Below are positions 47,079-49,664 of a stretch of 64,000 nt of DNA, piece by piece. The notes under the pieces were generated by a model. It did not search any database and had not been told where the DNA came from. It saw only the letters and a list, made by a program, of their open reading frames with translations. The translations under genes and the position numbers were made by a program. The stretch's first letter is position 1. Each line of letters begins with the position of its first letter. The stretch comes from Escherichia coli O127:H6 str. E2348/69 (lineage in GTDB: Bacteria; Pseudomonadota; Gammaproteobacteria; Enterobacterales; Enterobacteriaceae), in assembly GCF_000026545.1 (NCBI RefSeq), contig NC_011601.1. The stretch is one strand, 5' to 3'.

Positions 47079-49664
47079 ATGTGGAACCTTTTACGGCGAA
47101 CCCGAAAAAACCAGAAATCAGGACGTGACGTAAGAGAGGTGGGCTGGACCAGCCTGTTTCAGGCGGTGGCTGAGCCCTTTTCCGGCGCCTGGCAGCAGGG
47201 CGTGAAAGCCGATCCTGAAGCCGTCCTCTCCTTTCATGCGGTGTTTGCATGTATTTCGCTGATATCCCAGGATATCGCCAAAATGCGGCTGCGTCTTATG
47301 CAGACGGATGCGCATGGGATACGCAGGGAAACGCGCCGGGGGGATATTGCCCGCCTCTGTCGTCGTCCCAACGCCCAGCAGAACCGCATCCAGTTTTTTG
47401 AACTGTGGCTGAACGCCAAACTGCGTCACGGCAATACGGTGGTGCTGAAAATCCGTAATGCCCGGGGGCAGATCAAAGAACTGCGTATTCTGGACTGGAG
47501 CCGGGTTGAACCTCTGGTGGCGGATGACGGCGAGGTGTTCTACCGCATCACGCCGGACCGGAACTGCGGGATCACGGAGGCGGTGACGGTGCCTGCCCGG
47601 GAAGTGATCCACGACCGGTTTAACTGTTTTTTTCATCCGCTTATAGGATTGCCGCCGATGTATGCCGCCGGGCTGGCGGCCACGCAGGGGCATCATATTC
47701 AGGAAAATTCGACGTCTTTTTTCAGAAATGGTGGCAGGCCGTCCGGGGTGATTGAGATCCCCGGCAGTATTACGGAAGAAAATGCGAAAAAACTGAAGAG
47801 CAACTGGGACAGCGGGTATACAGGCGAAAATGCGGGGAAAACGGCCATTCTGAGCAACGGGGCAAAATACAACCCCACGACGTTTTCACCTGTGGATGCG
47901 CAGACGGTGGAACAACTGAAGATGACCGCTGAAATTGTCTGTTCGGTGTTCCGTGTCCCGGCCTACAAGATTGGCGTGGGACAACCGCCTTCCAGTGACA
48001 ACGTGGAGGCGCTGGAGCAGCAGTATTATTCCCAGTGCCTGCAGACGCTGATTGAGTCCATTGAACTGTTACTGGATGAGGCGCTGGAGACGGGGGAAAA
48101 CGAGAGTACAGAATTTGATGTCACCACGCTGCTGAGAATGGACAGTGAGCGGCGCATGAAAACGCTGGGGGATGCGGTGAAAAATACGCTTCTCACGCCC
48201 AATGAGGCCCGTAAACGGGAGAACCTGCCGCCCCTGGCCGGCGGTGATGCACTGTATCTTCAGCAGCAGAACTACAGTCTGGAGGCGCTGTCCCGTCGTG
48301 ATGCCCGTGAGGATCCGTTCTCGTCTGCCGGGAAAACAGTTTCATCACAGCTGCCTGACGGCGCATCTGACGGTAATAAGGCAATCAGTGAAACAGAGCA
48401 TGATGCGGTGAAAGCGATGTTCAGGGGGGATACTGAGAAAATGACGGAACGGGAACTGTCCATTATTCGTGCACTGGGAGAAGAATTCTCCACAGTGCTG
48501 GCGGATTTACAGCGCACATTTGAGGGGAAGATGGCCTCGCAGGCACAAGCGTTTGAAGAGAAACTGACTTCCCTGTCGGCGGTATTACAGAAGCATGTGA
48601 CGGTGGATGAGGTGCGTCCGGTTCTGCAGGCGATGGTGGATGACGCTGTGGGGGCCATTCCGGTACCGCGTGATGGTCGTGATTATGATCCGGATGTACT
48701 GCAGCAGGCGGTGAATGATGCGGTCGCAAATATTCCGCAGCCGGCGGACGGTAAAAGTCTCACCCCGGATGATGTGCGTCCGATGCTTGAACAGATGGTG
48801 AAGGAGGCTGTAAGCCATATCCCTGTTCCGCGTGATGGTCGTGACTACGATCCGGAAGTACTGCAGAAGGCGGTGAATGATGCGGTCGCAAATATTCCGC
48901 AGCCGGCGGACGGTAAAAGTCTCACCCCGGATGATGTGCGTCCGATGCTTGAACAGATGGTGAAGGAGGCTGTAAGCCATATCCCTGTTCCGCGCGACGG
49001 TCGTGACTATGATCCCGATGTTCTGCAGAAGGCGGTGAATGATGCGGTCGCAAATATTCCGCAGCCGGCAGACGGTAAAAGTCTCACCCCGGATGATGTG
49101 CGTCCGATGCTTGAACAGATGGTGAAGGAGGCGGTAAGCCATATTCATGTTCCGCGTGATGGTCGTGACTACGATCCGGATGTTCTGCAGAAGGCGGTTC
49201 TGGATGCGGTGAGTGCCCTGCCGGCTCCGCAGGACGGGCGTGATGCCACGGCTCTGGAAATACTCCCCGCCATTGACGATCAAAAATCCTTTCCCCGGGG
49301 CACGTATGCCACACACCAGGGCGGACTCTGGCGGGCGTATGAAAAAACGCACGGGATGCGGGGATGGGAATGCCTGGTTGACGGGGTGGCGGATATTGAC
49401 GTCAGCATGACGGGTGAGCGGTTGTTCTCTGTGGTGGTCCGGCAGAGCAGTGGCCAGCGTACGGAAAAAACATTTTCCCTGCCGGTGATGCTCTACCGCG
49501 GTGTGTTCAGAGCCGGTGAAACCTACCACCCCGGCGATACGGTGACGTGGGGGGGCTCGCTGTGGCACTGCAACAGTATGACCGAAGATAAACCCGGAGA
49601 AGCTCATTCATCAGCCTGGACCCTGGCTGCAAAACGTGGGCGGGATGCAGGAGGCGGAAAATGA
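47079..49664 (+). CDS. portal protein (HK97-family) with long C-terminal tandem-repeat extension
   Basis: Track ORF 46983..49664; start tentatively ATG 47079; portal-type ...TPNEARKRENLPPLAGGD motif, then repeats and about 140-aa C-terminal domain. Confidence 0.7.
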   Translation: MWNLLRRTRKNQKSGRDVREVGWTSLFQAVAEPFSGAWQQGVKADPEAVLSFHAVFACISLISQDIAKMRLRLMQTDAHGIRRETRRGDIARLCRRPNAQQNRIQFFELWLNAKLRHGNTVVLKIRNARGQIKELRILDWSRVEPLVADDGEVFYRITPDRNCGITEAVTVPAREVIHDRFNCFFHPLIGLPPMYAAGLAATQGHHIQENSTSFFRNGGRPSGVIEIPGSITEENAKKLKSNWDSGYTGENAGKTAILSNGAKYNPTTFSPVDAQTVEQLKMTAEIVCSVFRVPAYKIGVGQPPSSDNVEALEQQYYSQCLQTLIESIELLLDEALETGENESTEFDVTTLLRMDSERRMKTLGDAVKNTLLTPNEARKRENLPPLAGGDALYLQQQNYSLEALSRRDAREDPFSSAGKTVSSQLPDGASDGNKAISETEHDAVKAMFRGDTEKMTERELSIIRALGEEFSTVLADLQRTFEGKMASQAQAFEEKLTSLSAVLQKHVTVDEVRPVLQAMVDDAVGAIPVPRDGRDYDPDVLQQAVNDAVANIPQPADGKSLTPDDVRPMLEQMVKEAVSHIPVPRDGRDYDPEVLQKAVNDAVANIPQPADGKSLTPDDVRPMLEQMVKEAVSHIPVPRDGRDYDPDVLQKAVNDAVANIPQPADGKSLTPDDVRPMLEQMVKEAVSHIHVPRDGRDYDPDVLQKAVLDAVSALPAPQDGRDATALEILPAIDDQKSFPRGTYATHQGGLWRAYEKTHGMRGWECLVDGVADIDVSMTGERLFSVVVRQSSGQRTEKTFSLPVMLYRGVFRAGETYHPGDTVTWGGSLWHCNSMTEDKPGEAHSSAWTLAAKRGRDAGGGK
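48612..49260 (+). repeat. in-frame tandem repeat, 162-bp unit x about 4 (each unit two about 27-aa sub-repeats) within the portal gene
   Basis: gcggtgaatgatgcggtcgcaaatattccgcagccgg recurs at 48708, 48870, 49032 (period 162 bp); protein units VRPMLEQMVKEAVSHIPVPRDGRDYDPD / VLQKAVNDAVANIPQPADGKSLTPDD. Confidence 0.85.

Follow-up and report, generated by a model that had tools for sequence, protein, structure and literature searches.

Portal proteins of the HK97 family (PF04860/TIGR01537), among them the portals of phage HK97 (8cez) and RcGTA (6tba), are encoded in head modules together with terminase, capsid, and connector genes, and as stand-alone proteins are some 400-450 amino acids (aa) long. 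The portal of phage P22, gp1, is a polypeptide of well over 450 aa with extra C-terminal mass projecting from the crown, and this C-terminal helical barrel is an integral coiled-coil part of the portal gene. In actinobacteriophages (by annotation, the Arthrobacter phages Kittykat and MrGloopy), natural fusions of portal and MuF proteins show that portals can carry large C-terminal additions; the MuF partner in such fusions is usually a neighboring head gene. Here we describe an open reading frame (ORF) at positions 47079-49664 of a 64,000-nucleotide stretch (the window, to which all coordinates refer) of Escherichia coli O127:H6 str. E2348/69, contig NC_011601.1. The ORF lies in a lambdoid prophage of this enteropathogenic E. 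coli (EPEC), and resembles the HK97-family portals in residues 1-454 and in its place within a head module, but its polypeptide runs 407 aa further, into the product of the next gene, which we call X.

Very probably, the 861-aa ORF arose by the joining of two neighboring genes that are normally separate and coupled in translation, one for an HK97-family portal (454 aa) and one for X (407 aa). The parts concerned are as follows.

47079..48440, plus strand: portal moiety, aa 1-454, HK97 family (PF04860, TIGR01537, portals in the Protein Data Bank [PDB], and split homologs of 451-454 aa)
48424..48429, plus strand: G6 homopolymer, G5 in split alleles (junction alignment and census)
48441..49664, plus strand: gene X moiety, aa 455-861 plus the stop codon, normally a stand-alone protein of 407 aa that begins MTERELSIIRALG; in split alleles its ATG and the portal TGA overlap as ATGA

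From the ATG at 47079 to the stop codon at 49662-49664 the plus strand is read without interruption as 861 aa. The DNA is 100% identical to the E2348/69 prophage, in which exactly this coding sequence (CDS) is named 'phage portal protein' (WP_012578896.1), and an older E2348/69 assembly gives the same 861-aa protein (CAS08972.1); since the two assemblies agree, neither the reading frame nor the number of repeats within it is an assembly artifact. The N-terminal part is matched by Pfam Phage_portal (PF04860; aa 54-382, E 1.3e-80), by TIGR01537 portal_HK97 (residues 1-454, 350.6 bits against a curated cut-off of 112), and by the solved HK97-type portals 9lbn (E 2.9e-28) and 8cez (E 7.9e-20). Its length, by contrast, is not that of the family, being 861 aa against 451-454 aa in split alleles and outgroups.

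Alignment of the junction with split alleles indicates that the length of one G run is the only thing joining portal and X here. The junction in the window, TTCAGGGGGGATACTGAGAAAATGACG, has GGGGGG at 48424-48429, whereas split alleles have GGGGG. With five Gs, the portal ends ...TTC AGG GGG ATA CTG AGA AAA TGA (...AMFRGILRK*), and X starts at the ATG of AAAATGA. With six, the portal frame enters the X frame 12 nucleotides (nt) before the X ATG and reads ...AMFRG-DTEK-MTERELS... through to the X stop. The portal moiety is thereby changed in its last four residues only, ILRK being lost, and the X ATG (48441) is retained. The approximately 35 residues before the junction (...FSSAGKTVSSQLPDGASDGNK...) look, from their sequence alone, like a flexible low-complexity stretch.

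The relatives of this locus, about 65 species across the Proteobacteria among them, show the two genes apart. Phages Stx2a_WGPS2 and BP-4795 have G5 and two genes, for a portal of 454 aa and X proteins of 407 and 461 aa, respectively, with the ATGA overlap, and prophage Sp10 of strain Sakai has ECs_1974 (454 aa) and ECs_1975 (407 aa) as separate genes. Salmonella phage FSL SP-016 lacks the G run yet has the ATGA overlap between a 451-aa portal and a 347-aa X, with approximately 45% identity in the second part. In protein searches of phage records, full-length matches came from E. coli phages of the Shiga toxin (Stx) type only, and about 1900 other phages matched the portal part alone. Many close relatives carry two 'portal protein' genes, or a 'pseudogene', annotated at this position.

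A first-pass annotation of the window had described the ORF as a portal with a C-terminal extension of its own. It was right about the HK97-type portal in the N-terminal part and about the continuity of the frame through the repeats in this genome, but the extension has to be reassigned: residues 455-861 are the product of the neighboring gene, separate in almost all relatives and provided with its own ATG at 48441. The same annotation had allowed that the repeat region might prove to be a separate gene, which is so in the relatives and not in this allele, where a single ORF spans both.

Which state is ancestral was assessed on a sample of 80 loci encoding the C-terminal domain of X, one genome per species, from Gamma-, Beta-, and Alphaproteobacteria. 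A same-strand portal match was found in 69 of the 80, and none of these 69 loci is fused; in 67 of the 69 the portal is a separate ORF directly upstream of X. In 58 of them the X start codon and the portal stop share 1, 4, 8, or 14 nt, and both relative frames occur. Judged from these loci, the overlap is ordinary translational coupling, and the split arrangement is ancestral, conserved, and functional.

Within E. coli the two alleles occur side by side. We retrieved 80 prophage loci from IMG/VR, of which 65 retained the junction: 25 are fused, 35 split, and five otherwise broken, and none of the 25 fused alleles has a secondary lesion. A 40-nt junction sequence was then counted in 5426 complete E. 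coli genomes in its exact G6 and G5 versions. The G6 version is present at 1368 places in 781 genomes. The G5 version, identical in its flanks, was counted 708 times in 367 genomes, a minimum for split alleles, as those whose flanks differ are not included. Both alleles can share one genome, as in strain E2863. Several G6 loci have G5 twins with 0 mismatches across 1345 nt upstream and 250 nt downstream (1595 nt), and G6 occurs on at least three diverged backgrounds. Identical flanks around G5 and G6, together with G6 on diverged backgrounds, point to an insertion that is recent and has either recurred or been spread by recombination, and not to a sequencing error. A search for homologs of the full 861-aa protein was dominated by partial E. 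coli proteins from draft assemblies that break within the repeats, and gave no count of fused and split forms. Phage vB_EcoS_phi330 (PV189401.1), which also has the G6 junction, was left out of the evidence: its head genes are broken into several short CDSs, suggesting indel errors in the assembly.

A second portal-X fusion, P0091, is 1237 aa long, 39% identical in X, and located in the same gene module. It is found on four contigs of about 115 kb from metagenomic samples of JGI and ENA (at 4001-7714 in the two designated L165 and L166), and has approximately 25 repeats of the type LPxPEPEPLPDI.

The X moiety itself divides into three parts.

48441..48656, plus strand: N-terminal helical segment of X, aa 455-526, long helices in a low-confidence single-sequence AlphaFold2 (AF2) model
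48657..49238, plus strand: repeat stalk, eight (I/L)PxPxDG(R/K) half-units making up three near-identical 54-aa units and a degenerate fourth
49233..49661, plus strand: C-terminal beta-rich domain, aa 719-861, with a module like carbohydrate-binding module families 5 and 12 (CBM5/12; GDTVTWGGSLWHC...P...W), phrog_16748

The X N-terminus (MNERELS..) is kept in enterobacterial homologs. The single-sequence AF2 model of aa 431-861 is poor, with a predicted local distance difference test (pLDDT) score of 44, and served for rough secondary structure only. About 30 nt inside X lies a GC-rich hairpin, GCACUGGGAGAAGAAUUCUCCACAGUGC (48471-48498); the 101-nt region has a z score of -2.67 against shuffled sequences. 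X is an acidic protein, its 65 acidic residues outnumbering 44 basic ones.

Tandem Repeats Finder places an array with a period of 162 bp at 48666-49198 (3.3 copies, 95% matches, score 968, without indels). At the protein level there are three complete 54-aa units (aa 527-688), with 95-96% DNA identity between successive units, and a fourth in which conservation is limited to the first 25 aa. Each unit is made up of half-units of 25 and 29 aa, and there are eight occurrences of the (I/L)PxPxDG(R/K) motif. Among IMG/VR alleles X varies in length from 245 to 569 aa in steps of 54 aa, as the number of units varies. Fused proteins range from about 729 to 959 aa. The 162-bp tandem repeats and the division of each unit into two sub-repeats with an IPxPxDG(R/K) core had been recognized in the first-pass annotation, whose estimate of about four near-identical units is slightly generous. 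It had also singled out a distinct C-terminal domain of about 140 aa, and this is borne out by the 143-aa domain (719-861).

When AF2 was given an alignment of 69 sequences, aa 676-861 were modeled with a mean pLDDT of 90, and the beta-rich domain with more than 95. The domain has fold similarity to solved CBM5/12 domains. At the level of sequence, Pfam PF02839 (CBM5/12) aligns with aa 811-833 at E 0.012, which is below threshold, and a profile search of the PDB matched the chitin-binding domain 2rts at E 0.01. Unlike the chitin- and cellulose-binding CBM5/12 modules, the putative module here is embedded in a larger, 143-aa domain.

Neither of the longer portals described above accounts for the ORF. 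A P22-type barrel was ruled out, the extension being a separate gene in relatives, made up of a repeat stalk and a beta-rich, CBM-like terminal domain, and joined to the portal by a 1-nt indel. A portal-MuF (SPP1 gp7-like) fusion was likewise ruled out: there is no MuF match in Pfam or NCBIfam, and the fused partner belongs to an unrelated family.

That family is large and mostly stand-alone. X matches phrog_1289 (E 6e-195) and phrog_16748 (E 4e-97), and has the approximately 140-aa C-terminal domain following (I/L)PxPxDG repeats that marks members of PHROG 1289/16748, although in the window it is fused by G6 and is not the separate gene downstream of the portal that is usual for the family. 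Clustering at 50% (E <= 1e-3) gave 5577 representatives. Among the best 150 of these the median length is near 400 aa, repeat counts run from 0 to 20, a collagen-like GXY tail ends the protein in 40, and a portal domain is present in two only, those of the E. coli lineage and P0091. NCBIfam gave nothing for X, sequence searches of the PDB returned no solved homolog of X, the X homologs found in AFDB50 are all unannotated or misnamed, and structure matches for X in BFVD are partial, with TM-scores of 0.2-0.4. No paper on this portal, the fusion, or the X family came up in the literature searches. Many fused proteins carry a match to PF28083, an accession that is not in the Pfam-A library used here and that may be a recent Pfam family covering the X repeats or the C-terminal region. 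In a Sphingomonas sp. BK345 locus (L126, 4682-6189), a protease-only ORF stands first, then the gene of a short coiled-coil protein with the same CBM-like motif at its end; HNH and tape-measure-like genes come next, and there is no portal in the vicinity. This may be a satellite or a degenerate element.

In combination, a helix at the N-terminus, a variable-length stalk, and a knob resembling glycan-binding modules suggest that X is probably a fiber-like accessory virion protein, made in step with the portal. By architecture alone it may be compared with the SPP1 gp12 collagen-like decoration protein, the collar whiskers of the lactococcal neck passage structure, and T4 fibritin, fibrous, glycan-binding virion accessories, which we offer as a lead only. 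These share with X an anchor, a variable extended stalk, and a distal carbohydrate-binding-like module; unlike X, they do not adjoin the portal gene.

The genes next to the fused ORF place it in a head module.

44930..46867, plus strand: fusion of prohead protease (S78) and HK97-type major capsid protein, 645 aa (phrog_617, phrog_80)
46912..47133, plus strand: small ORF, 73 aa, between capsid and portal genes (WP_001063099.1; phrog_829, E 3.7e-39)
49661..49987, plus strand: head-tail connector (TIGR01560), whose ATG overlaps the stop codon of the fused ORF (ATGA)

The order is TerS, TerL, the 645-aa protease-capsid fusion, the 73-aa ORF, the fused ORF, head-tail connector, head closure protein, a gp10-like protein, tail completion protein, major tail protein, and further genes. 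The HK97 family has TerL, portal, protease, and major capsid protein in that order, whereas here TerL is followed by the protease-capsid fusion and then the portal. This unusual placing of the fusion upstream of the portal gene is kept in 74 of 81 related loci across Proteobacteria, in which TerL, protease-capsid fusion, small ORF, portal, X, and connector form a conserved module.

The start codon of the portal had been called uncertain in view of overlapping frames. The overlap is real: the final 55 nt of the 73-aa ORF, which is annotated and conserved, with homologs in the equivalent slot of 12 enterobacterial loci, extend over the portal start. The ATG at 47079 is nevertheless well backed by a GGAG 8 nt upstream and by alignments with PHROG 2271 and with portals of Salmonella, Kluyvera, Kosakonia, and Pantoea, all of which begin at residue 1. 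Shorter homologs of 53-55 aa fill the phrog_829 slot in Salmonella phage SP-016 and in metagenomic locus L165. Farther upstream, at 34730-34970, the prophage has three tRNA genes in a row; the one with anticodon CAT is called Met and may be an AUA-reading tRNA of the Ile2 type, and the others are Lys (TTT) and Arg (TCT). The genes ileZ (CAT) and argO (TCT) occupy the equivalent place in Sakai Sp10.

Evidence on whether each form is functional comes from two phages. Sp10, a split-form prophage in which all morphogenetic genes are conserved, has been packaged and transferred to K-12 (PMC2669165), which shows that the split form works. In phage 2851 the allele is the fused, G6 one, and the phage has been reported to integrate at sbcB (PMC4159516), which suggests that a phage with this allele forms infectious particles. 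With both forms present in phages reported to transfer or integrate, the fusion looks tolerated.

We present the following as a hypothesis. The overlap of stop and start codons, together with a G run, would make such a fusion an easy accident. The fused allele would direct the synthesis of a predicted portal-X polypeptide of about 96 kDa in which the portal is almost unchanged, and internal initiation at the X ATG, which is kept, could still provide free X. X would consist of an N-terminal helical anchor, a helix-loop stalk of variable copy number, and a distal CBM5/12-like knob, putatively glycan-binding, with a collagen-like tail in many homologs. The fusion would be tolerated rather than selected, a tolerated or mildly deleterious accident.

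Several points weigh against this account. A helper prophage in the O157 source strain of phage 2851 may have supplied the portal protein. The fused allele is very common, and the P0091 fusion arose independently, which leaves room for selection for the tethered form. The C-terminus of a portal normally faces the capsid interior, a poor fit with an external fiber if the fused form is functional. Should the fused alleles be functional, X may lie at the inner crown of the portal and not outside the virion as a neck or head fiber.

A possible but unlikely alternative is that the extra G is an inactivating frameshift in a decaying prophage, in which the added 407 aa would be toxic to the portal ring or to DNA packaging, the allele persisting only through weak selection on prophage lytic genes or through complementation by co-resident lambdoid prophages. 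Genomes can indeed hold both alleles, as strain E2863 does, the split state is ancestral, and enterohemorrhagic E. coli (EHEC) and EPEC harbor many partly defective, mutually complementing lambdoid prophages (PMC2669165). Against decay stand the intact remainder of the morphogenesis module in the window, the freedom from secondary lesions of all 25 fused loci sampled, the reported integration of phage 2851 at sbcB, and the modest change to the portal itself, confined to its last four residues and preceded by some 35 residues that appear flexible.

It is rather improbable that the chimeric portal has been selected because it tethers X to the crown, whether as a long internal or axial extension like the P22 barrel or as a portal-anchored internal protein. 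What speaks for such selection is that the fused allele is intact over 861 aa, abundant, and present in phage 2851, and that a divergent metagenomic lineage with the same gene module has acquired a fusion independently. By Rosetta-stone logic, these fusions suggest that X adjoins the portal C-terminus. The abundance is a doubtful guide, since copy counts are inflated by clonal expansion of hosts such as O157:H7. The G5 and G6 alleles differ by one base only, none of the 69 species-sample loci with a same-strand portal match is fused, and the overlap of start and stop is conserved; moreover, a distal carbohydrate-binding-like beta module, often followed by a collagen-like tail, is typical of exposed fibers and not of proteins of the capsid interior.

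We give very little credence to recoding or phase switching, in which the G run would serve for programmed frameshifting, or as a contingency tract, and yield both free and portal-tethered X. A -1 P-site slip in G5 would yield the fusion and a +1 slip in G6 would restore the 454-aa portal; AGG and AUA, which precede and follow the G5 run, are both rare codons in E. coli; and the two tract lengths do occur on identical backgrounds, as a phase-variable polymorphism should. Against a frameshift site, Salmonella and most other relatives lack the G run, the frame of X relative to the portal is not the same in all lineages, and no conserved slippery sequence with structure 5-9 nt downstream was found: the one hairpin of note (48471-48498, z -2.67) is some 40 nt farther downstream than the run, too far for a classical stimulator. 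The codons may not be slow, because the prophage has tRNAs of its own with CAT and TCT anticodons, probable readers of AUA and AGA/AGG. Against a contingency locus, five or six Gs are short, such tracts usually having at least 7 bases. The more specific proposal of a heritable G5/G6 switch between free X and X tethered to all twelve portal subunits, giving two functional types of virion, we regard as having a slim chance of being correct; were it true, the P0091 fusion would make X an unrecognized portal-anchored component of a large group of HK97-like proteobacterial phages. A sequencing or assembly artifact (a miscalled homopolymer, or a collapsed or expanded tandem repeat), as the first-pass annotation had also considered, has a negligible probability, for although homopolymers and 162-bp tandem repeats are error-prone and many drafts break inside the repeats to give 'partial' proteins, two E2348/69 assemblies give the identical protein and 781 complete genomes have exactly this G6 junction.

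That the 861-aa ORF is a fusion of two genes has direct consequences for annotation. PHROG 1289 and many UniProt and RefSeq entries apply the name 'portal protein' to stand-alone X proteins that lack a portal domain; other names in use are 'gp6-like head-tail connector', 'carbohydrate binding domain protein', and 'collagen-like protein'. The first of these names looks like annotation transfer, the fused E. coli alleles having been named first. Conversely, split alleles are flagged as 'pseudogene' in some Stx-phage records (WGPS4, WGPS8; GenBank AP012538, AP012540). Both the 'portal protein' label on the X family and the 'pseudogene' label on split alleles are wrong. Comparative data show the split form to be the ancestral, conserved, and functional one, a point that bears on the scoring of 'defectiveness' in EHEC and EPEC prophages.

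The main value of these findings lies in this correction and in drawing attention to the uncharacterized X family. The G5 and G6 alleles form a natural experiment on the C-terminal cargo that an HK97-type portal tolerates. X itself belongs to a widespread, portal-coupled, CBM-tipped family encoded directly downstream of the portal across Alpha-, Beta-, and Gammaproteobacteria, and can reasonably be considered a candidate fiber for binding of host or mucus by the virions of Stx-converting and related phages.

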